A DNA stretch of 64,000 bases from positions 1 through 64,000 of the IMG/VR virus record IMGVR_UViG_3300047160_007578; one strand, written 5' to 3'. Below, piece by piece: positions 1,752 through 33,282 of this stretch (the stretch's first letter is position 1; each line of letters opens with the position of its first letter). The notes below the pieces were generated by a model, which did not search any database, was not told the DNA's origin, and was given only the letters and a program-made list of their open reading frames with translations. The DNA comes from a virus. Made by a program: the position numbers and the translations under genes.

Positions 1752-3374
1752 TTACCTCACTTTCATTATCTTGAACAACTGATTGCCCGACATGGCTAAC
1801 GTGATCGTGCTACTTTGATAGACTGCAACTTCGATATAATCGCCGGCATTCAAATAAATCAACATCTGTAAGGAATGCATTACATCATCGAATGTGGAGG
1901 ATTGAATATAGAATCCATTTCCATTCAAGTACAATGTACCATTTTTGCGGAGTTCCGCTTTGCGAATTCCCACGTTATTTGCAGCCCAATGCGAGTATGA
2001 ATCTATCCAGTACCAGCCTGTTACTGGAGCGTAGAATTTAGTTGATCCTGCTCCACCTTGGAGGAAATTACCTTCGTCAGATATTGCTGTATAAGTAAGA
2101 GCAGTGGTTGTAGTATTAGCCACGCTGGTACCAGAAACATTTGAAGCATTACAGGCAAGAAATCTTTGACTATTAATCATTGCAGCGAAAGCGTTCCGCA
2201 TTGTTTTCATATCTTGGATGCGAGCAACAGTTCCAGATCGTTTGAGAAATGGGTCGGTGCACAAAACCGGTGCGGCATAATTGCCGCCAGTGGTAAAACC
2301 TGAACCCGGTGTGCCGCCAAAAATTGAATAATACATACCAAGGCCATTATAACTGGCATCGATCTTTTCGACGTACATGTAAAAGACTGTGGAACTAATT
2401 TGAACGAAACAAGGAGCACCGTAGCTATTTGAAGACGAAGCTGCTGGCCAATTACTCATCCAATGTGATGAACCTGCAACCGTATAACCGGATGTGAGCG
2501 AAGAAGAAGTCCAAAGTTCGATATAATAATTGCTATTGTTCCGAATAAACAGATAATAAGTCGTTCCGACTTTGATCACAAATGGTGACTCGACACCCGT
2601 TGCGAGACCGGTGCCTGTGATTGCGACTGCCGAACCCCACGTTGTCATACCGATATTTGTGGGAGAACGCTTATAAATCGCAGCAGTTGTATTACTTGTT
2701 CCAATTGTGAGAAAAACGTGAACAGAACCGTCAGTATCGATGAACCATTCTGGACCTTGAACGTATGTAGCACCGCTAACTGTTCCTGACTCCGATACGG
2801 TTGTTACGAGCGTCCAATTGATCAGATCAGGCGAGGATGCAACACCCCAAGATGTAGACGTCGTTGAACCTGTCGTATTTGTTGCTATTGTGTAAACCAT
2901 CCAATACGTTGTGCCATCATAATAGATCGATGGGTCTTTAAGAGAATTGCTTGCCGGCTTATAAACCGGGGTTGGGCGTAACAAATCCCAATTGACACCA
3001 TCACTACTACCCATAAGAAGTGCGTTACTATTGTACTGTTCCGTATTGAGGGAAACAAACATCCCTTGTCCCTGACTATTTAAGCTACCTATCGGATTCG
3101 TAGCAAGGTTTTGTAATGCCTCCGCAGAGACAATACAAATCACATTAACGCCACCGGTGTGAGAAGCAGCTGTTGTACCTTCTACACCACGAGTGATCGT
3201 GAATGTTGTACCAGAAACGGAAGTCACACGCATTATTTCATTGTCTACTAAAATATGAAAATTGCCAACAGTCGGAAATGCGGTTGCAGCTGCAACTGTT
3301 AAGGTCGTATCGGTACTGATGATAGAGCTACTAAGTGTACTGATCGCGTTGTTAACGTATTGTTCTGCGATCAT
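1752..3374 (-). CDS. Tandem paralog of 141-1745, putative tail fibre/receptor-binding protein
   Basis: Collinear high similarity with 141-1745 (MIAEQYVNNAIS, LKDPSIYYDGT, YVQGPEWF, LNAGDYIEV). Confidence 0.65.
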   Translation of the reverse strand: MIAEQYVNNAISTLSSSIISTDTTLTVAAATAFPTVGNFHILVDNEIMRVTSVSGTTFTITRGVEGTTAASHTGGVNVICIVSAEALQNLATNPIGSLNSQGQGMFVSLNTEQYNSNALLMGSSDGVNWDLLRPTPVYKPASNSLKDPSIYYDGTTYWMVYTIATNTTGSTTSTSWGVASSPDLINWTLVTTVSESGTVSGATYVQGPEWFIDTDGSVHVFLTIGTSNTTAAIYKRSPTNIGMTTWGSAVAITGTGLATGVESPFVIKVGTTYYLFIRNNSNYYIELWTSSSLTSGYTVAGSSHWMSNWPAASSSNSYGAPCFVQISSTVFYMYVEKIDASYNGLGMYYSIFGGTPGSGFTTGGNYAAPVLCTDPFLKRSGTVARIQDMKTMRNAFAAMINSQRFLACNASNVSGTSVANTTTTALTYTAISDEGNFLQGGAGSTKFYAPVTGWYWIDSYSHWAANNVGIRKAELRKNGTLYLNGNGFYIQSSTFDDVMHSLQMLIYLNAGDYIEVAVYQSSTITLAMSGNQLFKIMKVR

Positions 3375-3417
3375 TAATCATTTCCTCCTGTTAGTATTGA
3401 TTGATACCCATGAGTAC

Positions 3418-3876
3418 CTATGGATGCGTGAGCGTAAAGGAAGAAATGCTAACCGTATCGCCGCTATTGATTGTCGTTGTCGGAAAAACGATATCGAAAC
3501 TAGAAGAGGTTCCGACTGTACAATCCATAACCGCTGTACCACCGCCAGAAGCCATCCGAGCCCAGGTAGCTGTACCAGTGTTGCCAGCGGTGCCAGAAGT
3601 GATCGTGTTGGCAGTTGCGACACCATTGACGGATGCGCCGAAGGAAGTTGACGAGAACGTGAGTGTAGCCAAAAGAGTTTGGCCGGAAAGAGCGGTGTCC
3701 GGTCCAGCTGGTTGTGTGCCGGTGTAGATTTTGATCGTACCAGCGCCACCAGCGTTGAGTAATGCAGTGACCGCATCCATCGCGGCACTCTTTCCGGCAT
3801 TGCTGAGTGTCAAGTTGTTCGCGAAGGCTCGCTGGAACCACTTGAGGAATGACGCTTTGTCTGAGAACTTGATCAT
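3418..3876 (-). CDS. Virion structural protein (Gly/Thr-rich)
   Basis: IKIYTGTQP...LLATLTF...GTATWARM...TVSISSFTLT pattern typical of small phage structural proteins; RBS present. Confidence 0.6.
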   Translation of the reverse strand: MIKFSDKASFLKWFQRAFANNLTLSNAGKSAAMDAVTALLNAGGAGTIKIYTGTQPAGPDTALSGQTLLATLTFSSTSFGASVNGVATANTITSGTAGNTGTATWARMASGGGTAVMDCTVGTSSSFDIVFPTTTINSGDTVSISSFTLTHP

Positions 3877-3900
3877 TGTTGTCTCCCTTTTGATTATTGA

Positions 3901-5826
3901 TCAGGTCGAACCAACATGCCCGTGTTGCCCCGGTTTGGGTCCAGGCCGTTCTTTAACTACTGTTCCGGAATGAGTTTCACCTGATGGACTACCGCCCTTA
4001 CCGCGAACCGGGAAACCGGCTTTGGCTTTCTCGGCTTGGACTTCGCCGTCCGGATCAGCGGATTCGTCCCGATTACCTCGAGCGCCGGGATTTTGTTGAC
4101 CATTCCCATCACCGTTGGGCGCCGCTGCTCCCATTCCCTGCTCGGGCTGCTGAGCTTTCTTGATCATTTCCAGACGCTTGACTTGAGCTTCCTGAGCCTT
4201 CTTCGCCGTGCCCTCTGGATAGCCACGAAGCTTACCGGCGTAGTCAGGATCAAGGATTCCAGTTTGAACGTCCTTGGTGATCTGGTCAATGGCGATATCA
4301 ACGGTTTCAGATTCGTCGATTTCATCGTATATTTTTTGCATCATTTCCGGTGGATAGCGATGTAATAAGAGCAAGTCTGCGATTCGTTTTGCCACGCATC
4401 GCTGGAATGTAATAGAGCAGTGACCAGCTATTTGTTTCTTGTATTCTTCGACTTCGGCCCAAATGTCCTTTTGGTTCTGGACGTTGAACTTGTCAGGGTA
4501 TCGAATCGTGGCGATATCATGTTCCTTCTCGTTTTCGTACATGTGCCACAAGTAGGCGATTTGCCGCTCGGCATCTTCGCACATCGATCCGATATAACAA
4601 AGGCCAGCCTCAAGCGACCGTTCATCGAATCCGCGGGACTCAGCAGATGTGGCTCTTACGTTTAGGTTGGTAATAGACAAATTGATTAATAATCGAATAT
4701 CCATCTTCAACTGCTCTTCCAAGTCCATTCCAGACTTGAGAGACTCTGCCGATGGATTTACAAATTGCGGCCGCTCCAGTCCCTTTGCGTACATTCGGCC
4801 GTAGCCGACACCGACCTTGATATTGTGCGATGGCATCGAGCCATTACCAACAACGCCGCCATCGTCAGGCGCACTGGCAGAACCGTTTCCATTGGCAGTT
4901 TGCGGTATCGCGGCATCGCTGCCGTCTTGCAAGTGACCGGAGTACGCTCTTGGATCGAATTGCTCGGTATAGAAGGGGAAATTGGAATCAATGCCAAAGG
5001 AAAGAGTAGAAGAAGCAAGGTTCAATAGAGCTATCTGATAGTCCGCGATATCGGACATAAGAGAGTTGGATAGCTCCGCGGTGACAAAGGGAATACGTGG
5101 GATATTCAATTGGATTGGCCCGGTATTACCCTGACCAGTCGGATCAATGGGTTGACTATTTTCGTTATAGAACTGGACCCAAATCGTTCCGTCGTCTTCG
5201 TCTCGGTAATAGTACCGGTACTGGTGTGTTGTCCCGGTGGGCAGCTTGGTTATTGCGTCACGAATGAAAACCGTATCTCTAAGTAATAGTGCTTTGTAAA
5301 TATTGGGTGTAGGCGAATCGTCGTATTCCCAGGAGCGAATATCTTCGGCCTTGTACACGTACAAATAGGGGCGAATGTCCTTGTTGGCTAATACCGTCGT
5401 TCCGCGTTTAATAGGCATGTCCACGTAGATGCCGACCTTACCCATGATACACAATTCTGGAAGCACCATTGCTCCCATGAATGTGTTCATAGATGTGCCA
5501 GACAAATCCACGCCAGCTTCGCGACCCATGATCGCGGCTTGATAAGAGCGTGAGCCATCGATTCGGGTGATATCCCGGAATCGTCCGTAAATCGAACTGA
5601 TGGTATCCCGTACTGCTGCTTTGGCGAAGGCGGGGCAGTAGGCTATTTTCTTCCTTCGGCTAAAATCGTCATTAGACTCTGCCTTACGCTGTTGCAGATA
5701 TTCGTTGATGAAAATCCAGCCACCCTCATAAGTGAGTCGCCACTTATACCATTCCAGCATGCGCAAGGAATAGTGAGGGTGCGTTATTGATTCTATCGGG
5801 ATTTGTGTGACAATTTCTAGTGCCAT
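3901..5826 (-). CDS. Portal protein
   Basis: HPHY..W..WR..YEGG N-terminus, GKVGIYVDMP, RPYLYVY.AEDI..W, IPFV motifs; near terminase; start placed at the RBS-preceded ATG 5826. Confidence 0.8.
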   Translation of the reverse strand: MALEIVTQIPIESITHPHYSLRMLEWYKWRLTYEGGWIFINEYLQQRKAESNDDFSRRKKIAYCPAFAKAAVRDTISSIYGRFRDITRIDGSRSYQAAIMGREAGVDLSGTSMNTFMGAMVLPELCIMGKVGIYVDMPIKRGTTVLANKDIRPYLYVYKAEDIRSWEYDDSPTPNIYKALLLRDTVFIRDAITKLPTGTTHQYRYYYRDEDDGTIWVQFYNENSQPIDPTGQGNTGPIQLNIPRIPFVTAELSNSLMSDIADYQIALLNLASSTLSFGIDSNFPFYTEQFDPRAYSGHLQDGSDAAIPQTANGNGSASAPDDGGVVGNGSMPSHNIKVGVGYGRMYAKGLERPQFVNPSAESLKSGMDLEEQLKMDIRLLINLSITNLNVRATSAESRGFDERSLEAGLCYIGSMCEDAERQIAYLWHMYENEKEHDIATIRYPDKFNVQNQKDIWAEVEEYKKQIAGHCSITFQRCVAKRIADLLLLHRYPPEMMQKIYDEIDESETVDIAIDQITKDVQTGILDPDYAGKLRGYPEGTAKKAQEAQVKRLEMIKKAQQPEQGMGAAAPNGDGNGQQNPGARGNRDESADPDGEVQAEKAKAGFPVRGKGGSPSGETHSGTVVKERPGPKPGQHGHVGST

Positions 5827-5840
5827 AAATGATTCCTTTC

Positions 5841-6815
5841 TTAAAGGTTTAACCACCATTTAGGTGGAGCATTAGTGAAGATACCAGTTAAACCAGCAAT
5901 GCGGGAGATAAGAAAACGTATCACTATGTTATAGCCAAAGTCGATCTGTGTTTTCAGCCCGGATGCCGCCAAAACCAGGTATTCGCTATTGTTGGTGAAT
6001 GGAGTCGAAACATCCGGAATGTTGAAACTCGCTTGTGTATTAAACTCACCAGCACTATACGGTAGAATTTCCTTGAAAGTATCTGTACCAGTTTGGGCGT
6101 ATGTTGGCATACTATCTGTGCTAGTAACGTTGTATGTTAAAGTCCATACTGTTGAAACTCCGAAGAATGGAATTCCCCTACTATTAATGTCATAATACGG
6201 AGGAAAAATCTGAGCCATACCAAAGTCAGTCATAGCTGACTGATGTGGATAAATACTTGTGGTCTCTCCAGAAAAATTGTTCCACCAACTTAAGTAACTT
6301 TGCATCCAATCAACTACAACATCTAATCGCAAACCAACATCGTTGAAAAATAAAACATAAGTATATCCTGTCTGTGGAACCCAATTTCCACCAGAATCCC
6401 ATCCAGCATATTGAAGCACACTATTAAAATCGTCTTGGCTTAGTAATAACGGAGCATACATTGAATTAATAGCTGAGCGGGTTGATGGAACAAAAGTAGG
6501 AAGAGTGCCTATTTTAAACGCGCTGTCTATATCAGGTAGAGTAAACGGCGGTCCACTTGACCCTCTTACTCTGTAATTACTAAGTTGATTAAATTCAGAC
6601 ATTGGGTCTAGGTACAACGGTTGATATCCGACATATTCATCCCTAAAAGCTTTATTCAATTCAATTGGGGTTTTATTCGCAAAGTAAGCAGGTTTGACAA
6701 GTTGTTCAGTTTGGTGAACAACGGTTGTTTCAATATTATCGTAGACTTTGGTACTGTTTGGCGGTGACCATGACCCGTTGACGAAGCTAAACGTATCAGT
6801 TATATCATAGGGCAT
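5841..6815 (-). CDS. Hypothetical protein between terminase and portal
   Basis: 324-aa ORF with GGAG RBS; AT-richer than its neighbours. Confidence 0.7.
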   Translation of the reverse strand: MPYDITDTFSFVNGSWSPPNSTKVYDNIETTVVHQTEQLVKPAYFANKTPIELNKAFRDEYVGYQPLYLDPMSEFNQLSNYRVRGSSGPPFTLPDIDSAFKIGTLPTFVPSTRSAINSMYAPLLLSQDDFNSVLQYAGWDSGGNWVPQTGYTYVLFFNDVGLRLDVVVDWMQSYLSWWNNFSGETTSIYPHQSAMTDFGMAQIFPPYYDINSRGIPFFGVSTVWTLTYNVTSTDSMPTYAQTGTDTFKEILPYSAGEFNTQASFNIPDVSTPFTNNSEYLVLAASGLKTQIDFGYNIVIRFLISRIAGLTGIFTNAPPKWWLNL

Positions 6816-25715: not shown

Positions 25716-25925
25716 CTAGCCCATTAGAATTTTCCAGACCGTTCCCAGACCGCACCGATAGTGCCAATACATACACCATATACCAGTGTTCATTGCCCAG
25801 CAAAACAGGACAATATAGGTATACTGTACATTGTTCCATCGCTTCTTACTGTTTACACTGTGATACGTTGTAATCAACGTGATGACAGTAAACAGCGCGG
25901 CGAAAACGGCCAAATTGTGCTGCAT
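25716..25925 (-). CDS. Small 2-TM membrane protein (module gene)
   Basis: GGAGG RBS; two hydrophobic segments. Confidence 0.6.
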   Translation of the reverse strand: MQHNLAVFAALFTVITLITTYHSVNSKKRWNNVQYTYIVLFCWAMNTGIWCMYWHYRCGLGTVWKILMG

Positions 25926-26149
25926 TGTGTTTCCTCCCGTGTCGTGTTGTCAACCTAATAGAGTCTAGCATAGAATGGCGCGATTGTCAAACGAAAATGA
26001 TCAAAAATCCCAAAAAATCCCAAAAAACATTGCCTCTGGAGCATAGCGCCAACGCGTTAGGGCGCTTTCTGGCGCTAGATTTTTCGGCCAGCGTATTAAA
26101 GCTACATCGGAATGGCGCGCGTCGATCCTGCGCGATTCTGGCGCGTTTT

Positions 26150-26520
26150 TTATTTCCTATCGCAAATGTAGGAATTTAGCGCCGCCTAACTATTTGCCAC
26201 AAAAAAGATCTTTAATCTCTCAATGCCGATTTGCCACAAAAAAAAGATCGCAATTATCCGCAATCGGAATTTGCCACAATTCCTATCTCAATTGTATTGC
26301 ACAATCGCGATTTGCTACAATCGTGATCTTTAATCAATCTTTATCTCAAATATTTGCTACAAAAACGGTCGCAATTGTATTGCACAATTCCTATTTGCTA
26401 CAAAAGAGATAGAAATTAATCAAATCTTTTTGAGATATTCCTACTATTTCTATCTCAATTGTAGCGAACATTTGAGATAAAGAGAGTATCTTTATATTTC
26501 TACTATTTAGGTCTTTAATC
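26150..26520. repeat. AT-rich non-coding region with short degenerate repeats
   Basis: ATTTGCYACAA x5, CAATTGTATTGCACAAT x2, several TTYCTAY. Confidence 0.75.
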
Positions 26521-26539
26521 TCCCTTACGAAAAATTAAC

Positions 26540-26897
26540 TTGACAATGCCGCGTAGTATGCTATGATAGTATCGTGGAGTATGCGCCGATTGGTTTGGCG
26601 CGGGCCGGAAAAGATTTGATTAATTCCGGTTTGGCACGGGAATTGCTGGCGAATTCTGATTAAAAATCGCTGGACATACGAGCGCTGGACAAAGGAACAG
26701 TAAAAAGAAATCCAAAATTCGGTTTGACAATCGGCCAGAGTGAGCTAGAGTCTATTAGAGTGAGATTGACGCAACGACACGACAAAATGAAAGGGGATTT
26801 TGAGGCGCGCGGAATTAAACTTGCACTATCCGCGCGGCCGAAAAAACCGGAACAAAAAAACGAAAAAATTTGACTTTCCGGTTTTTCGTGCTATACT
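26540..26897 (+). promoter_or_regulatory. Three tandem sigma70-like promoters
   Basis: TTGACA-16-TATGAT (26540-26567), TTGACA..TAGAGT (from 26724), TTGACT-16-TATACT (26870-26897); the first and third have an extended TGn. Confidence 0.75.
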
Positions 26898-26903
26898 GGA
26901 GTG

Positions 26904-27800
26904 TAAGGTTAAGTGAGCGAGTGGTTGCTTGACTCGCGCGGTTCGATTCCGCGGCGCTCAAATCGGTTTAGGCACTTCGCCTAGACTGCAACGCTACCAT
27001 TGGAGGAAAAAGCCACAACCGAAACGGCGCACGTGAGGCTAATCCCCTGACACGGGCGCAATATACATAGCGGTGGGACCGCTACGGTGAATCATTGTAC
27101 ATCATAGGCGTCGCGCCTATCGGTTCGATCAATGATCTTTCCGCGTCCATTCATCCCGATGCCGCAAGGCTAGACGGTACGTCAAGAGGCAAGCGCCCAG
27201 CTTGCTAGACGCTAGTGCCGTGGTGATTGGACAAAGACTGATTAAAGATCGGGCACGGTGCGTCAAGTATGCTCTGTATGCAACGACACTATGCGAATTG
27301 CCGAAAGTAGACGGCTAACGGGTCACAGTTGCCCGGTTCAAGAATCCCCAGCTAACGTAGAGACGAGCTGGCGTCCAATCCTGTAAGGGGTGGTCACAAA
27401 CCATCCACGGGTAAACGGCAAGTTTGATCTTTGATCAAAGTTGCCCGAAAACCGCAGAGATTGCAGGACAGACGAAAAAGAACCACCATAAGACAGGCTA
27501 CCGCCCAACTATGATCGTGGAAGCGGCCCAAAAACCGCTGATCCGTGTGAGTAGGGTAGCTTAACATTTCTTATGGTGACTGTGCGGCGCTTCGGAATGA
27601 GCACCTGACCTTTCTTTCCCGTAAGGGAAATTCGTCAGATTCCATCCGGGTCGTGTAAATATCCGTTCCGTGTGGAATGGAACACGATTTGGAAAATCAC
27701 GTTTGCCTTTCGTCCCCGCCCTATGCCAACCGTTGACAGCTACAACGATTTTTAATCGTCTCGCTGTGCAACGGTGGCAAGGGCCGGAACGTGGCAGAAA
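26904..27800 (+). ncRNA. Large structured non-coding RNA / leader, family unassigned
   Basis: No credible ORF; strong promoters upstream; many stems incl. GNRA hairpins; long-range CACCATAAGA/TCTTATGGTG and GCTACC/GGTAGC pairings; tRNA-like T-arm at the 5' end. Confidence 0.75.
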
Positions 27801-27812
27801 GATAGGTGACTC

Positions 27813-29201
27813 ATGTCCAGAGTGCTCGCAATCGTCCTCAACTTCGCTCAAATCGCTTGGGTTTCGGCGGTCAACTACCGTCGGGACTACGGCGACACTG
27901 ACCGACTGCGGGCCAGTTTGACCGATCGTGATTGGGTTCAGGACAACGTGGTTCAGGCGTTTCCGCTCGACAACGCGGCGGCGCTCGGCTACGACGTTCC
28001 GACCATGATCGCGGCCGAACTGGACCTGCGGCAGAAGTTGTGGGACACGCTGAAAGCCGATCAGTCCAAGGAAGGACTCGTGAAGCTGAAGGTGTTCGAG
28101 AAGCTCTATACCGTCAACGGTGACGGCAAGCGGCTGATCGAACCAAACCACTTCGGCAACAGCGGCTTCCGGCGCCACTCGGTCTACTTCGCCGCAATGG
28201 TTGACCGCTGGAACCTCCGCGAGAAGCCCGAATACGCGGGCTACGAAATCTCGGGTCACGTTCCAGTCCGGGTCATGACCTACGCGACGAAGGCCGATCA
28301 AATCTTCGAGCAACAGCTTGAGAACGCCATGCAGAACGTCGGCACGAAGCAGATGGAGGACTTGGAAAAGCTCCGAGTCACTCACGATCTGTTCCAGGCC
28401 GGCGCGAAGCAGGTCAAGATTCGGCATCTGTACCCCGGTTCGACCGGCCAGAAGCTGTTCTCGATCTGTCTGGCCGATCTCAACTGGCCTGCGTTGAAGA
28501 TTTATGATCGTTTCCACTTGCCCGAATCGCATCCCGATCGGATCAAGTGGGGTCCGGTGCGTCAACAGGACGTGACGAAGTTCAACAACAGGTTCGATGC
28601 CGTCCGCAAGGAGAAGGACGGCCTGCCGCTCACTCCCGCGGAGCAGAAGGAATTGCTGCCACCGATCACCCTGGATGACCTCCAGATCGCGGTGGACAAC
28701 TACTTCCGCGACGCTTCCCGCGGCAAAGAGGACGATTCCGCCAAGATGATGAAGAAGGGCGACATTGCATCGCTCGCTCGCGTCCACCGCTGCTCTATCG
28801 TCCGTCGGGCGATGGACTCGGTACTCGGCGACGTGCAGACGAACTTGCAGAAGTTCGTCAGCAACCCCGACTGCATCAACTTGGCCACGGAACTGTATGA
28901 TCTTGGCGGTCAGGACGCCGGCAAGACCATCCTCACTCCGCTGATCAATGATCAGACCGAAACCACCCCGGAGGGCAAACAGGTCGCCAAGCGCGTTTTC
29001 AACGACAAGGCGGCTCTCGCGCTCGTCGGTGCGGCTACCCTGCTGATCAAGGGTCAGGGCGACGCCTTGCTCAAGGCGATCGACCTCATCAACAACCCGC
29101 CGCCCCCGCCCGCTCCGGTGGAGGAAAAGCCCGCTGCCACTCCCCCGACCGCTCCGGCCAACGGCGGCAAGAAGCAGCAGACCGGCGGCAAGCGCAGCTG
29201 A
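27813..29201 (+). CDS. ParB/Srx-like N-terminal domain protein with Pro/Lys-rich tail
   Basis: NYRRDYGD..L.ASL, SGFRR (GxRR), VPVRV and EN...MEDLEK follow ParB box I/II order; strong C/G third-position codon bias. Confidence 0.6.
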   Translation: MSRVLAIVLNFAQIAWVSAVNYRRDYGDTDRLRASLTDRDWVQDNVVQAFPLDNAAALGYDVPTMIAAELDLRQKLWDTLKADQSKEGLVKLKVFEKLYTVNGDGKRLIEPNHFGNSGFRRHSVYFAAMVDRWNLREKPEYAGYEISGHVPVRVMTYATKADQIFEQQLENAMQNVGTKQMEDLEKLRVTHDLFQAGAKQVKIRHLYPGSTGQKLFSICLADLNWPALKIYDRFHLPESHPDRIKWGPVRQQDVTKFNNRFDAVRKEKDGLPLTPAEQKELLPPITLDDLQIAVDNYFRDASRGKEDDSAKMMKKGDIASLARVHRCSIVRRAMDSVLGDVQTNLQKFVSNPDCINLATELYDLGGQDAGKTILTPLINDQTETTPEGKQVAKRVFNDKAALALVGAATLLIKGQGDALLKAIDLINNPPPPPAPVEEKPAATPPTAPANGGKKQQTGGKRS

Positions 29202-29363
29202 ATCCGTCGGTTTAGCACCGCTTCCGGTGACTTTGCCCTAATGGGCTATTAACAAATCCGGTCAGGTGCTCATTCCCAAGTACCGCACAGTACAAATCAA
29301 AAGGAATGATTTTTAATCATTCTTTTCCGAAGCGCCGCACGGTTGACAGAAAGGTAGGTGAAC

Positions 29364-29651
29364 ATGGCTTTCATCAAGGCACGCAATGTCACCCGAATCG
29401 GCAACAGCGATGTTTTTGAAGTCGAGCTAATCGACGAAGGGACTCCGCTGACCACCGAAGAAATGGAAATCTTCGAGCGCCGATTCCCGAACACGCGGAA
29501 CCGCGTCGAGCAAGCGCTTGAAGTCGAGCGCGTGCTTAGCACGATTCCAACCGAAACGGAAATCATCACCGCACAGCGCAACAACGGCAAGAAACGTGGG
29601 AACGCTCACATGCCAACCGCGATTCCGCCCGCCACGCCGCCCAAGTATTGA
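29364..29651 (+). CDS. Hypothetical protein
   Basis: GAAAGGTAGGTG RBS. Confidence 0.75.
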   Translation: MAFIKARNVTRIGNSDVFEVELIDEGTPLTTEEMEIFERRFPNTRNRVEQALEVERVLSTIPTETEIITAQRNNGKKRGNAHMPTAIPPATPPKY

Positions 29652-29757
29652 CACTTCCCAACGATCTTTAATCTTGTCTCCAAACCCGTCAACCGTGGTG
29701 CTTCCGATGCGCCGCACAGTGCAGCGTATCTATCTTTTCGCGAAAGGTAGGTGCTAC

Positions 29758-30075
29758 GTGTTTCATTTCACCGCGGTCATGGAGGACAATGTCCTGATCG
29801 CAACCGATGTTGGTCATGCCCTATCGGCTGAAGAAATTCTCAAACTTCACGAATCGGGCACGCCAGCGCCACCGAATCTGTCCGTGGTCGGCAGCGACAA
29901 CTTCACCGGCAAGACCGGAACCGCGAAGTGGACGCCGCAACAGCTTTGCGCTGTGATCGCTCTCGCGTTCGGTGCCGGCGAAGAAAAATGGCTGGGCTAC
30001 GACGTGGACGCGCTCTACGCAACCGCGGAACCCCTGTTCAAGGATTGGCCCGCCGAGTGTCGGCCGATTCCCTGA
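29758..30075 (+). CDS. Hypothetical protein (GTG start)
   Basis: GAAAGGTAGGTG RBS. Confidence 0.7.
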   Translation: MFHFTAVMEDNVLIATDVGHALSAEEILKLHESGTPAPPNLSVVGSDNFTGKTGTAKWTPQQLCAVIALAFGAGEEKWLGYDVDALYATAEPLFKDWPAECRPIP

Positions 30076-30247
30076 ACCCCAACCGCTCTGATTAAAAATC
30101 AGAGCGGTCCGAAGCGCCGCCCGGAATTGACACGTAAAACAGAAAGGAGCGTGTCAAATGTTCCGTCCCTGAAAAGGGACTCAGCGCACCCGATTGATTA
30201 AAAATCTTTCGGGTCCGCCCGAAGCGCCGTGCAGAAAGGAGGATGCC

Positions 30248-30568
30248 ATGCCGAATTTCCTCGTGATCATCACGAAAAACGACGGCAAGCAAAAAGACCC
30301 AAAGACCAAAAAATGGGTCGATGTTGTTCCAGAGCAAACGCCAGTCCGATTGTGCAATTGGATTGCCGAAAAGCTCCGGCTCAATATCAACTTCTACGGT
30401 TCCGTTGCAGTGCATGTTCTGCCGACTGCCAAAGACACGGCGGATAAGCTCATCGCCGCACTGGAATCCGTGCCGGACGTTCACTTGCCACTTTCCCGAC
30501 GTGAAGCAATCACCACCGCTATCATGTCCGTGCTCATCCCGCCCGCACACACGCAAGGGCGAAGATAG
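30248..30568 (+). CDS. Hypothetical protein
   Basis: AAGGAGG RBS. Confidence 0.75.
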   Translation: MPNFLVIITKNDGKQKDPKTKKWVDVVPEQTPVRLCNWIAEKLRLNINFYGSVAVHVLPTAKDTADKLIAALESVPDVHLPLSRREAITTAIMSVLIPPAHTQGRR

Positions 30569-30632
30569 CCTGATCATTAATCGCATGGCGCTTCCGAATC
30601 GCCGCACAGTAAACCAACCGAAAGGAGATACC

Positions 30633-31007
30633 ATGCCTGATCGACCAAAGCGGGTTTGGTGTCAGGACGATGGACATTACAACCATCTTCCAACGCCAAA
30701 CGAACCCGTTCCAATTGGCGAATTCTGGTACTGGCTGTTCCAAGCCAGTTTCACCGTGGAAGTTCGCCAAGTGGAAAAGTTCCGCTACAACAAAGTGCTG
30801 ATCTTTTGGGCAGAGAATTCCGCTTACGCGCTGATCCAGCCGGACAAGTGGAAAAGCTCCCCAAAGCTGCACTATCCGAACATGCCCACCGCACTTCGCA
30901 TCGGTTGCCGACACGAATACCATGTCGAACGGCAACCGTTACCGTGTTACAAGGAAGTCAAATGCGCCAAGTGCGGGCACGAAAAGGTGATCGACAGTTC
31001 GGATTGA
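30633..31007 (+). CDS. Hypothetical protein with C-terminal zinc ribbon
   Basis: GCRHEY...CAKCG...DSSD; AAGGAG RBS. Confidence 0.75.
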   Translation: MPDRPKRVWCQDDGHYNHLPTPNEPVPIGEFWYWLFQASFTVEVRQVEKFRYNKVLIFWAENSAYALIQPDKWKSSPKLHYPNMPTALRIGCRHEYHVERQPLPCYKEVKCAKCGHEKVIDSSD

Positions 31008-31080
31008 AACCCAACCGGATTGATTAAAAATCAATTCGGTCCGAAGCGCCGCACAATTGGCTTGGGAAAGAGAGGTTCCA

Positions 31081-31284
31081 ATGGCTCAAAGGAATTGTGC
31101 CGTGTGCGGTGCTGAACTTACTCCGTTCCGAACGGATACACTCACCGCTCACGAATTCGATTGCTACCAAAAGCATCCCGAACTCATCCCCGATGAACAC
31201 CGCGAACAATTCGAGAAAACGCTCGCATGGAAGCAACGCAGCGACGCCGCAAAACGTGCGGCAAAGAAGCGCCGCAAGTCCTGA
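31081..31284 (+). CDS. Small zinc-finger-like protein
   Basis: CAVC...H..C; basic tail; RBS. Confidence 0.7.
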   Translation: MAQRNCAVCGAELTPFRTDTLTAHEFDCYQKHPELIPDEHREQFEKTLAWKQRSDAAKRAAKKRRKS

Positions 31285-31350
31285 TCATTAATCAAGCCAG
31301 TTGTGCAGCTTCCGAAGCGCCGCACGGTGACTTGGGAAAGAGAGGTTCCC

Positions 31351-31584
31351 ATGCACTATTGGTGCCAGTTCATCGACGACAGCAAAGGCACGATCAACGC
31401 AGACAGCATCGAGCAACTGCACGAAGTCGCTGCCAAGCTGAAAAAGCCCATCAAGCATTGGTGGCCGCTTCCGTATCCCGCCAGTCCGCAACTGAACCCC
31501 GGCAATTGTCCGCCGTTCTGCTTCACGCCGGAAAGGTGCAAAGGGCACAGTTCGTGCCCACGCAACTACGCTTGTTCCGAGTGA
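31351..31584 (+). CDS. Small Cys-rich protein
   Basis: CPPFC..C..SCPRNYAC; RBS. Confidence 0.7.
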   Translation: MHYWCQFIDDSKGTINADSIEQLHEVAAKLKKPIKHWWPLPYPASPQLNPGNCPPFCFTPERCKGHSSCPRNYACSE

Positions 31585-31640
31585 TCATTAATCAAGTCAC
31601 CGTGTCGCTTCCGAAGCGCCGTGCAGGAAGGAGCGTGCCT

Positions 31641-31844
31641 ATGCTCAATCCAGACATCAACAAATTGCACCAACTCGACAAGTTGTATCTCGAAATAAAA
31701 CGGTTGGCTGAAAAGATCAACGACGTGTATCGAGCATACAACAGTCCCGGTCTATGCAACATTGAAGCTTGCGAACAACAACTCGCGACCGTCGCGAATC
31801 AACTCGAAAGCCTTACCCCGCTCTTACGAGCGTGGAAGGGCTAA
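31641..31844 (+). CDS. Small helical hypothetical protein
   Basis: AAGGAG RBS. Confidence 0.65.
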   Translation: MLNPDINKLHQLDKLYLEIKRLAEKINDVYRAYNSPGLCNIEACEQQLATVANQLESLTPLLRAWKG

Positions 31845-31943
31845 AACGATCTTTAATCAAAGCACGTCGCTTCCGAAACGCCGCACAGTGCGAGTGAGTA
31901 TCACACTCAATCACCCCGCAAGGGGAGAAAGGTAGGTGCTCAC

Positions 31944-32825
31944 TTGAAGATTCGTGTTACCGATTACGACGAACTTCGGAATTGGTTCACTGACTTCGCT
32001 GACGACCAATACGATATCATGATCGTGGAAGGTTCCGCGGGCACAGGCAAATCTCAGATCGCCCGCGAGTCGATTAAAAATCTTGACCCGAAAGATTACT
32101 GCTTTCTGGAAGGTCGGATTTCCGCGGTCTGCCTGTACGAGAAATTGTACAAGCACCGCGATCAACCCATCTACATCGACGACGTTGACGGTCTATACGC
32201 TGACCGTCAGTGCGTGAACCTGTTGAAGTGCGTCTGCCAGACCAACGCGGACAAGACCGTCATGTGGAACACGCGCGGCATCAAGAACATGCCCGCGGAT
32301 TTCACAACACGTTCCAAAGTCTGCATCATCACCAACAACTGGCGAGCACTCAACAAACACGTCGGCGCAGTGGAAGATCGGGGTATCCTTATCCCGTTCC
32401 ATCCAACGCCATACGCGGTGCATGATTACGTCGGCAACAATCTGATCGACTGCGATTGGTTCGACGATGAGATTTTCATCTTCATCGGCGAGTTGCTGCC
32501 CGTGATCAATAATCCGTCCATTCGCCACTACCGGAACTGCAAGCAAATCAAGAACGCAGGCCGGAACTGGCGAGCGGTCATGGCGGAATCGTGCGGACTG
32601 AACGAAACCGAAGCTCTCGTGCTCAAGCTCCTTGTCGGCGGCGTGGAAGGTCAGCGGGTCAGTTTCAACGAACTGGCTCACATCTTCGCGCAGATTGCCG
32701 ACCGATCAACGCGGACGTTCTGGCGAATCAAGGCGGAATTCGCCAAGAAGGGACTCACGTGTGCAGGGGAAGCGGAAATCCCAGCAGATCAGGAAGATTC
32801 GGTCAACGGTCAGATCGATCATTAA
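31944..32825 (+). CDS. P-loop (AAA+-like) ATPase with possible C-terminal HTH
   Basis: GSAGTGKS Walker A, IYIDDVD Walker B, CIITN sensor. Confidence 0.85.
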   Translation: MKIRVTDYDELRNWFTDFADDQYDIMIVEGSAGTGKSQIARESIKNLDPKDYCFLEGRISAVCLYEKLYKHRDQPIYIDDVDGLYADRQCVNLLKCVCQTNADKTVMWNTRGIKNMPADFTTRSKVCIITNNWRALNKHVGAVEDRGILIPFHPTPYAVHDYVGNNLIDCDWFDDEIFIFIGELLPVINNPSIRHYRNCKQIKNAGRNWRAVMAESCGLNETEALVLKLLVGGVEGQRVSFNELAHIFAQIADRSTRTFWRIKAEFAKKGLTCAGEAEIPADQEDSVNGQIDH

Positions 32826-33282
32826 TCAACACCGGAATCCTCCGGTTCTCACTCGCTGTTCTTTTTCGATAAAATTCCTTGACTCAAGCGGAGTTTCGGC
32901 GTAAAATGATTAATGATCAGAAACAGCGAAACGGGGTTCACGGCACACTCCGTTCGCAAGCCGAATTAATCAAATCATTCCCGCAAAGTCTGAAAATGGC
33001 GGTTTTTGTCATAAGGATTTTTCCTTATGACAAAAGTGGGCCATTTTCGACGCGCAAACGGCAGCGCTGGCCAGCGCTGCCGGTGTGGGAAGGGCGAACA
33101 CTGAACAAAGATTCAGTTTTTGTTCGGTGCAAATGGGATTCACGCCACATTGCGCGCGGCGCTATGATTATTAATCGGGGCGGCCATTGCATAGAGCGCT
33201 GGCGAATGGAACAGGAAATCGAAATTCATAATTCAGTTTCACAATCGGCCCGACCCTGGAGGGTCAATTGATCAATGATCTT

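Follow-up and report, generated by a model that had tools for sequence, protein, structure and literature searches.

A candidate two-state leader arm predicted to pair with the start region or the 3′ flank of a phage ParB/KorB-fold gene

Why should the leader of a phage operon carry a string that resembles the 3′ end of 16S ribosomal RNA (rRNA)? The string lies at positions 27598-27615 of IMG/VR virus record IMGVR_UViG_3300047160_007578, ahead of an operon that opens with a gene for a 462-aa protein of ParB/KorB-like fold; the DNA analysed, called the window below, is the first 64 kb of this 130,262-bp phage record. An initial annotation, made from the letters alone, had described the string as an anti-Shine-Dalgarno (anti-SD) mimic that adjoins a docking site and could mask or present the unusual ribosome-binding sites (RBSs) of the operon. 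We find that the motif exists, reading TGAGCACCTGACCTTTCT, which is the earlier CACCT..CCTTTCT with GA inserted, and that it stands directly 3′ of a perfect antisense copy of an 18-nt box. Our favoured reading, for and against which we see the case as evenly balanced, is that 27598-27615 is the cis-acting anti-RBS part of a two-state leader arm that also forms one side of a stem bracketing the first cistron.

The complementarity of the motif to RBSs of this operon is real and does not arise by chance. Its reverse complement AGAAAGGTCAGGTGCTCA agrees with 31926-31942 (AGAAAGGTAGGTGCTCA), ahead of an ATPase-like gene, at 17 of 17 letters with one extra C; looser matches at 29348-29360 (over 13 letters) and 29742-29755 (over 14), which precede the small genes g2 and g3, share that same gap, and 27796-27813 (AGAAAGATAGGTGACTCA), at the first gene, matches at 16 letters with one mismatch and two indels. 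All four matches had been proposed from the sequence, and all were recovered. When the 18-mer was paired with each of the 43,392 plus-strand 30-nt windows of the record (0.1th percentile -21.2 kcal/mol, 1st percentile -15.1 kcal/mol), the ATPase start region (31926-31942) ranked second at -26.9 kcal/mol and the g3 site fifth at -22.4 kcal/mol, and the g2 (-18.9 kcal/mol) and first-gene (-18.1 kcal/mol) sites passed the 1st percentile and fell short of the 0.1th. The string AGGTAGGTG occurs five times in the record, three times at these plus-strand sites and twice elsewhere on the minus strand. The best partner genome-wide is not an RBS at all: 29260-29291, which lies behind the first gene and is absent from the initial annotation, forms 17 perfect pairs with the motif at -27.1 kcal/mol.

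This element, arm D, is complementary to the leader over far more than the motif. Together with the antisense box copy, the motif makes up leader arm U (Table 1), and U and D form a 32-nt inverted repeat (27579-27610 / 29260-29291) that is 91% complementary, with 29 Watson-Crick pairs, one G-U pair and two mismatches. The duplex has an energy of -58.7 kcal/mol and a z-score of -11.4 against 500 shuffled partners. The role of D differs from that of a 3′ anti-SD element: D is itself SD-like (GGTCAGGTG) and pairs with an anti-SD arm and not with an SD, and its duplex with the first gene's start region, T, reaches merely -13.4 kcal/mol. Beyond D, the box recurs in a single orientation. There are ten plus-strand copies, all in intergenic modules at 29273-31888; a search of both strands of the whole record at up to four substitutions returned 11 matches, all at 27580-31888, and the nine copies beyond D each stand 15-56 nt ahead of a start codon.

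The same bracket surrounds the equivalent gene in distant relatives. A scan for relatives in metagenome contigs gave three loci, L001-L003. L003 breaks off within the gene and has another gene immediately ahead of it, and it was left out of the arm comparison, as were the contigs of two close relatives, P0001 (98%) and P0002 (88%), and those of 150 listed representatives. L001, at 37% protein identity, has a bracket at 1149-1182 / 2656-2689 (34 nt, 85% complementary, z -8.9), and L002, at 34% protein identity, has one at 4620-4649 / 6116-6145 (30 nt, 93% complementary, z -9.6; 500 shuffles in each case). L001 shares the anti-box core with the window and has an unrelated outer arm that is not SD-like, and the arms of L002 are almost wholly different in sequence from those of the window. 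The covariation analysis that had been suggested for this RNA is positive for U-D: with the three sequences aligned by register, 11 of 32 columns differ on both sides between the window and L001 and still pair, as do 11 of 28 between the window and L002, anchored on a shared C-C mismatch. The L001 equivalent of the motif still pairs with its two partners without being SD-like. By these comparisons the cistron bracket is conserved and the 16S likeness is not, and what is kept as a partner is the element that follows the first gene and, with weaker support, that gene's own start region, not the RBSs of the operon. A single predicted unit in L002 takes in U, T and D together with a promoter (4435-4462), one small gene and a strong 15-bp terminator (6383-6415).

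Other collections added no loci. Viral contigs queried with the protein, A1 and A3 gave no confirmed locus for a protein relative, genome contigs queried with A1 and A3 gave none, and tblastn against INPHARED phages and PLSDB plasmids gave no match to the protein. We treated 71 single matches to the box pattern in viral contigs as chance, as none of these contigs encodes the protein (among all loci collected, tblastn matched L001-L003 only).

In a message that ends before D, the predicted partner of U is T. The minimum free energy (MFE) fold of the leader (27540-27835) has an energy of -130.3 kcal/mol and a z-score of -8.54, and none of 200 shuffled sequences is as stable. In this fold U (27576-27614) pairs with 27797-27836, from a position 185 nt upstream, and covers the SD and the start codon. 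The U-T duplex reaches -42.5 kcal/mol (z -5.0, 500 shuffled partners) and includes six G-U pairs. U keeps 33, 29 and 29 of its 40 nt paired at P > 0.5 with flanks of 20, 100 and 200 nt, respectively. In the whole 961-nt leader, 29 of 40 U nt are paired, 15 of the 18 motif nt are paired at a P of at least 0.82 and the SD has a P(unpaired) of 0.17. The arm is paired with the start region in the MFE leader folds of all three loci, covering the AUG in L001 and, with the spacer looped out, GAAAGG and the AUG in L002. When the non-box part of the L001 arm is ranked against 1,690 windows, D comes first and the first-gene start region second. Taken alone, the anti-box shows marginal complementarity to the first 30 coding nt at the first gene (null fraction 0.03) and at g2 (0.07). 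Masking of an RBS by this RNA is predicted for the first gene's own start region; the operon RBSs are not the conserved partners. At the other eight starts the extended complementarity is absent, and we therefore do not regard each of the four AGGTAGG start regions as a full copy of T.

Variation at the leader could be followed in soil metagenomes. Contigs from three of four soil DNA runs contain a diverged strain in which 98 nt within 27726-27825 are exchanged for 107 other letters, a change that takes in the final hairpin of the leader and the greater part of the start region; 27283-27726 is little changed in this strain, with 19 letters and four gaps in one 1,144-nt contig. Among the rows listed for the four runs there is no variant in U or D and no joint with a strand change at the arms. 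None of these observations on the runs is evidence either way.

Once the whole cistron is folded, the arm moves. In the MFE folds of 27560-29310 and of its L001 and L002 equivalents, U leaves the start region for D at three of three loci, placing 32 of 40 arm nt on D in the window, 30 of 34 in L001 and 22 of 33 in L002, where 8 nt remain on the start region. We propose that U has two mutually exclusive partners, T and D, on one plus-strand RNA. In a short message, U would close a very stable leader domain on T, and as T includes the SD, the AUG and the first codons, this pairing would keep ribosomes off. When the polymerase has passed the gene, D would be made, presenting an SD-like decoy and a degenerate box that together are the better partner of U; U would then move to D, forming a 32-bp stem around the whole cistron and freeing T. 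The thermodynamic predictions thus describe a leader that would stay closed over its RBS until D exists. The long U-D double strand would also be a plausible RNase III site, at which the cistron could be cut from the polycistronic RNA.

Several results weigh against this proposal. The 1.65-kb strand swap is purely a thermodynamic prediction, and the arm comparison covers three loci only (the window, L001 and L002). The U-T pairing is the less secure half: its z-score is merely -2.2 in both L001 and L002, it lies outside the top 12 of 4,267 windows in L002, and its pair probabilities in the two relatives drop to 0.18-0.51 with longer flanks. An extended arm (27574-27632) places the window's T at rank 9 of 13,005, with unrelated windows scoring alike. 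Duplex energies are alike on the two strands, at -42.5 (plus) and -43.2 (minus) kcal/mol for U-T and -58.7 (plus) and -61.1 (minus) kcal/mol for U-D, and the counts of G-U and A-C pairs in U-T (6 and 2) do not separate an RNA from a DNA reading in the window. The genome also holds 33 inverted-repeat pairs of at least 26 nt within 3 kb, in the module array at 16-26 kb, and inverted copies are thus a habit of this genome. A scan of L001 500-3000 gave no sigma-70-like promoter. Near-identical DNA occurs in 24 sequencing runs, all of them soil metagenomes and none of them RNA. Finally, the DNA-binding fold predicted for the first-gene product keeps a DNA-level reading alive.

A further question is whether the AGGTAGG sites need a special RNA. 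The initial annotation had held that their non-canonical T fits the motif better than the usual anti-SD, and this is borne out. The motif is stronger than the 16S tail at four of four AGGTAGG sites (-18.1 to -26.9 kcal/mol), where bulging its own G is the only way in which it takes up the T, and weaker than the tail at six of six other start regions (-8.0 to -15.1 kcal/mol). The tail used here is the canonical 15-nt sequence and not the host's own 16S, and no rRNA gene was found in the record itself. The phage uses GAAAGGAGG and AAGGAGG elsewhere (8 and 23 copies, most of the AAGGAGG copies being followed by a start codon), and a standard anti-SD can therefore be assumed. This tail pairs with the four AGGTAGG-type start regions at -14.6, -18.6, -15.7 and -18.7 kcal/mol, the extra U being bulged, and with six canonical start regions of the same operon at -12.9 to -18.2 kcal/mol. 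Because the ordinary tail pairs with AGGTAGG as well as with canonical sites, ribosomes need no special helper there, and the outcome that the initial annotation had named as refuting it, an explanation of AGGTAGG by the host anti-SD itself, is largely what the hybrid-energy comparison gives. The suggested bipartite recognition of box and RBS meets a problem of order: the arm runs anti-box then anti-RBS and would need a target running RBS then box, and the genes carry box then RBS. Judged by this order, pairing with a downstream box and RBS at once would be of a crossed, pseudoknot-like topology; only D and T have the order that fits the arm in one continuous helix. What survives of the initial annotation is a real anti-SD-type sequence beside a perfect antisense box copy, and its stronger pairing with the AGGTAGG-type start regions. 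The motif is not best read as a 16S mimic. It resembles the 16S tail because it is complementary to an extended SD, and for a 16S-like string in a leader this is the simpler reading.

Among the alternatives, the one that best survives, though we regard it as unlikely, places the function at the level of DNA: boxes and arms would be operators or centromere-like protein sites, with 27579-27610 as a site in inverted orientation and the RNA complementarity as a by-product, and the binder could be the ParB/KorB-fold product itself. The protein makes this a serious proposal. An AlphaFold model built on 76 sequences has a predicted local distance difference test score (pLDDT) of 91.4; an earlier model on seven sequences (pLDDT 57.6) was not used. 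The N-terminal 175 residues match the ParB CTPase domain 7bnr_A (Z 11.2, root-mean-square deviation 2.2 Å, 94 residues aligned), and residues 3-306 match pNOB8 ParB-N (5k5d_A, Z 9.2 over 177) and KorB (8qa9_A, Z 8.8 over 174), pointing to a ParB N-terminal fold followed by a helical DNA-binding domain. No Pfam, PHROG or Protein Data Bank sequence match names the protein; none of 76 members has a Pfam family, and none matches a ParB family at E ≤ 0.01. Relatives number six in 90% clusters and 348 among 50% representatives (E ≤ 0.001), 72 of them at 1e-30, and the protein thus founds a sizeable family that lacks a Pfam model and has a confidently predicted ParB/KorB-like fold. A predicted DNA-binding fold resembling ParB CTPase and KorB/pNOB8 thus lies near 11 repeated boxes, and KorB, a CTPase of the ParB family, is reported to repress promoters that lie as far as kilobases away from the site at which it binds DNA. 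Several box copies have a short palindrome, GCTTC-C-GAAGC, in their core, and the box consensus is kept between the window and L001 at 37% protein identity. Duplex energies in the window do not favour the plus strand, and inverted module copies are plentiful at 16-26 kb. The details of the repeats nevertheless fit protein sites poorly. All ten downstream boxes point in the same direction, and the part of them that is best conserved, CGCCGCACAG, lacks symmetry. Their palindromic centre is not of constant length (TTCCGAA, TTCGGTCCGAA, TTCGGGTCCGCCCGAA), a trait that accords better with hairpins than with a site for a dimer. In their outer 13-16 nt, the arms of the window, L001 and L002 are wholly different and yet complementary within each locus, and the arm sequence of L002 is present as this one pair only. 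T is a poor DNA copy, not found at up to four substitutions, and a good RNA partner, because it overlaps the SD and AUG and needs six G-U pairs.

Another repeat of this genome raises a related question. The record holds 265 copies of an 11-bp palindrome, GATnnnnnATC, where about 33 would be expected. In 220 of them the centre is A/T-rich (as in GATTAATAATC, GATCATTAATC and GATTAAAAATC), and these are evenly spread at about one per gene; the palindrome is also present in L001-L003. It is often found at a stop codon or shortly after one, lengthened there to a hairpin of 15-19 bp; examples in the window are at 27747, 29308, 29663, 30091, 30197, 30572, 31022, 31283, 31584, 31849 and 32818. Could it be a promoter, a terminator or the site of a DNA binder, for example the ParB/KorB-fold protein? 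At 26190-26400, a short way ahead of the promoters of the leader, DNA of 42% G+C holds six copies of an iteron-like repeat, ATTTGC(C/T)ACAA, interleaved with GATnnnnnATC palindromes, an arrangement that looks like a replication origin or a centromere-like site.

Next in standing, and improbable as well, is that the leader or a processed piece of it carries U as an antisense RNA that docks on the boxes and masks several starts, those of the ATPase-like gene, g3, g2 and the first gene, in cis or in trans, in the manner of the c4 RNA of phages P1 and P7. The box array speaks for it: U contains an antisense copy of the box that is free of mismatches, the box itself is found ten times on the plus strand, in this operon only, and L001 retains the antisense copy as well as boxes that share the consensus. 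The ATPase start region equals D as a partner of the motif (-26.9 and -27.1 kcal/mol; rank 2 of 43,392), and the motif beats the canonical 16S tail at all four AGGTAGG sites and loses at the six others. The pairing with the ATPase start region extends to 41 positions when the extended arm (27574-27632) is used, at -56.8 kcal/mol and rank 2 of 13,005, after D. Much of this pairing is contributed by a hairpin ahead of the ATPase SD, which mirrors the one that follows the motif. The two loops, GTAA at 27615-27630 and GCAA in the ATPase start region, are of the GNRA type on the plus strand, which gives a slight argument for a plus-strand RNA, because a plain inverted copy would not give both. The ATPase match may be a second target, or it may be a trace of the module duplication that built the operon. 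Excess leader could come from three tandem promoters. Against these points, a single U per transcript cannot cover at least ten sites unless leader accumulates; in cis, D precedes g2, g3 and the ATPase-like gene in synthesis and pairs more strongly, and the box-then-RBS order of the genes forbids a continuous helix with the arm. L002 has U, T and D but no box array, start regions of L001 other than that of the first gene do not stand out, and the anti-box is non-significant against the coding starts of the ATPase-like gene (null fraction 0.49) and g3 (0.36). Rfam models, c4 included, gave no match at gathering score in the window, and none to c4 at E ≤ 10 in 25900-27900, where the four matches at E ≤ 10 were all at chance level.

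More doubtful again is a programme run by RNA alone that would join this docking to the proposed switch. The arm would shut the first gene, the decoy would release it, and the arm would then read the ten boxes and the AGGTAGG starts, that of the ATPase-like gene above all, either in cis or as an abundant processed leader, and so set the order or ratio of cistron translation or cutting. If this held, the pairing of many sites with one arm would account for a box sequence that stays frozen between distant relatives and a private part of the arm that drifts with its partners.

Least probable is that U is a functionless leftover of an inverted duplication of a start-region module, with the RBS matches due to common descent: duplication is evident among the intergenic modules (g7 and g8, for example, have near-identical leaders), D and the ATPase start region can be aligned with the reverse complement of U across some 45 nt that take in a preceding hairpin, and inverted module copies abound at 16-26 kb, but the bracket holds the same place in three lineages at 34-37% protein identity with its sequence turned over and 11 compensatory columns each, the anti-box has no mismatch to the consensus in the window and an exact 15-nt core in L001, and the GNRA-type loops GTAA and GCAA on the plus strand are not expected of a plain inverted copy. 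Repeated modules are also a feature of L002, where copies of about 460 bp with TGCCATTTTGGCAG palindromes lie around the ParB-like unit (3000-4300 and 6400-6700) and echo the module array of the window at 14.6-26.2 kb.

The layout of the operon is collected in Table 1. About 1.3 kb upstream of the motif is without a credible open reading frame (ORF). Three promoters predicted there would drive the leader and the operon, and a plus-strand scan found no strong terminator between them and the first gene. A 408-aa minus-strand ORF (27561-28787) was rejected as a shadow of the well-supported plus-strand first gene, and the motif was rejected as a minus-strand RBS: AGAAAGGTCAGGTG has no ATG, GTG or TTG within the next 12 nt.

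Table 1. Positions of the leader elements, boxes and genes in the window
Feature	Position	Strand	Details
Three sigma-70-like promoters	26540-26567, 26724-26751, 26870-26897	+	Predicted from consensus; 10-11 of the 12 hexamer positions agree; TG extension in two
Arm U	27576-27615	+	27579-27597, antisense box copy; 27598-27615, anti-SD-like motif
Hairpin TTTCCC-GTAA-GGGAAA	27615-27630	+	Directly 3′ of the motif; MFE fold pairs 27615-27618 with 27627-27630
Two long hairpins within the U-T helix	27631-27796	+	MFE fold
Start region T	27797-27836	+	SD (AGAAAG..AGGTG), ATG 27813-27815 and first 7 codons; predicted partner of U without D
First gene, 462-aa ParB/KorB-fold protein (predicted fold)	27813-29201	+	Start ATG 27813-27815
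Arm D	29260-29291	+	59 nt past the first-gene stop; SD-like GGTCAGGTGCTCA, then degenerate box
Nine boxes beyond D	29325, 29702, 30107, 30217, 30592, 31039, 31310, 31609, 31871	+	18 nt each; one per intergenic module
g2 RBS AGAAAGGTAGGTG	29348-29360	+	ATG 29364
g3 RBS GAAAGGTAGGTGCT	29742-29755	+	GTG 29758
Eight small ORFs	g2 29364, g3 29758, mini-ORF 30158, g5 30248, g6 30633, g7 31081, g8 31351, g9 31641	+	
ATPase start region	31914-31963	+	Hairpin CCCC-GCAA-GGGG, then AGAAAGGTAGGTGCTCA, TTG 31944
ATPase-like gene, 293 aa	31944-32825	+	TTG start at 31944

Further features of the locus stand apart from the arms. A full module at 30107-30172 (box, AGAAAGGAG RBS and ATG) serves a four-codon ORF alone (ATG TTC CGT CCC TGA), and is either a collapsed gene or a regulatory mini-ORF. 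Behind the ATPase-like gene, at 32879-33270, a strong sigma-70-like promoter (TTGACT-17-TAAAAT) precedes about 350 nt in which no ORF is convincing and which may encode a further non-coding RNA. An inverted repeat at 26606-26639 / 32950-32983 (34 nt, 79% complementary) brackets leader and operon over 6.3 kb; it includes the common palindrome and may be due to chance. At 26934-27005 the leader holds a T-arm-like GGTTCGATTCC, with Rfam matches at chance level (RAGATH-36, E 3.9; cyanobacterial transfer-messenger RNA (tmRNA), E 1.5), and ARAGORN found no tRNA or tmRNA in the window.

How does the proposed arrangement compare with known systems? Long imperfect duplexes flank functional units in the RNase III stems that bracket rRNAs and in the RNase III sites of phage T7 and the lambda N leader; such duplexes are suited to the excision of the unit from a longer transcript. 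In the phage, unlike in those stems, a protein-coding cistron is the unit flanked, and the 5′ arm is predicted to serve as an anti-RBS as well. In the leader of the MS2 maturation gene and in the early transcripts of T4 e, soc and I-TevI, a start region is sequestered by an upstream complement, and translation depends on the folding state or on the transcript made. We know of no conserved third partner behind the gene in these cases.

Pairing between the ends of one bacterial cistron has also been described. In the icaR mRNA of Staphylococcus aureus, the excerpted report describes an SD/anti-SD duplex between the 5′ and 3′ untranslated regions (UTRs) that blocks initiation and is an RNase III substrate (PMC3868564). 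The phage locus resembles icaR in having complementary elements before and behind the coding region of one mRNA, but the 3′ element of icaR, as given in that excerpt, is the anti-SD, and its pairing represses (PMC3868564). In the phage, the anti-SD is in the 5′ leader, and the SD-like 3′ element is predicted to relieve masking by competition. In Bacillus subtilis hbs, according to an excerpt, a 14-bp interaction that joins the 5′ UTR to the 3′ UTR modulates RNase Y, a likeness in long-range intramolecular pairing between cistron ends (PMC5737220). Parts of a preprint report that pyrimidine-rich anti-SD-like stretches pair with RBSs over hundreds of nt and inhibit initiation, and in those parts the stretches lie several hundred nt downstream of the RBS and not in a leader (PMC12697547, preprint). 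The phage arm is set apart from these last two cases by its length of 32-40 nt, its place 185 nt upstream, its two predicted alternative partners and its conservation in relatives. The closest phage parallel is the c4 RNA of the P1/P7 immI operon, which an excerpted source describes as an antisense element that heads its own operon and is complementary to a downstream ribosome-binding region (Citron & Schuster 1990, as cited in PMC8198154). The motif shares this trait, being complementary to an RBS further down its own operon, the ATPase start region. It differs from c4 in that no Rfam model matches and in that its best partners flank the first cistron and are not a downstream RBS alone. A limited full-text literature search found no described equivalent of a phage leader arm with a partner behind the cistron. 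What sets this locus apart, on the predicted folds, is the three-way design, in which an anti-RBS arm is shared between the true start region and a decoy, SD-like in sequence, that lies behind the stop codon.

Structures that hide RBSs are common, and pairing of the ends of a bacterial cistron is represented by a handful of cases, icaR and hbs among them. Soil phages with only one third of the protein sequence in common have retained this bracket, its arms showing compensatory changes. If our reading is true, translation of the ParB/KorB-fold protein would wait for transcription of the whole cistron, and the locus would be a clean natural example of translation activation that depends on the 3′ end, giving a handle on the control of an unstudied protein family that has 348 representatives and no Pfam model.

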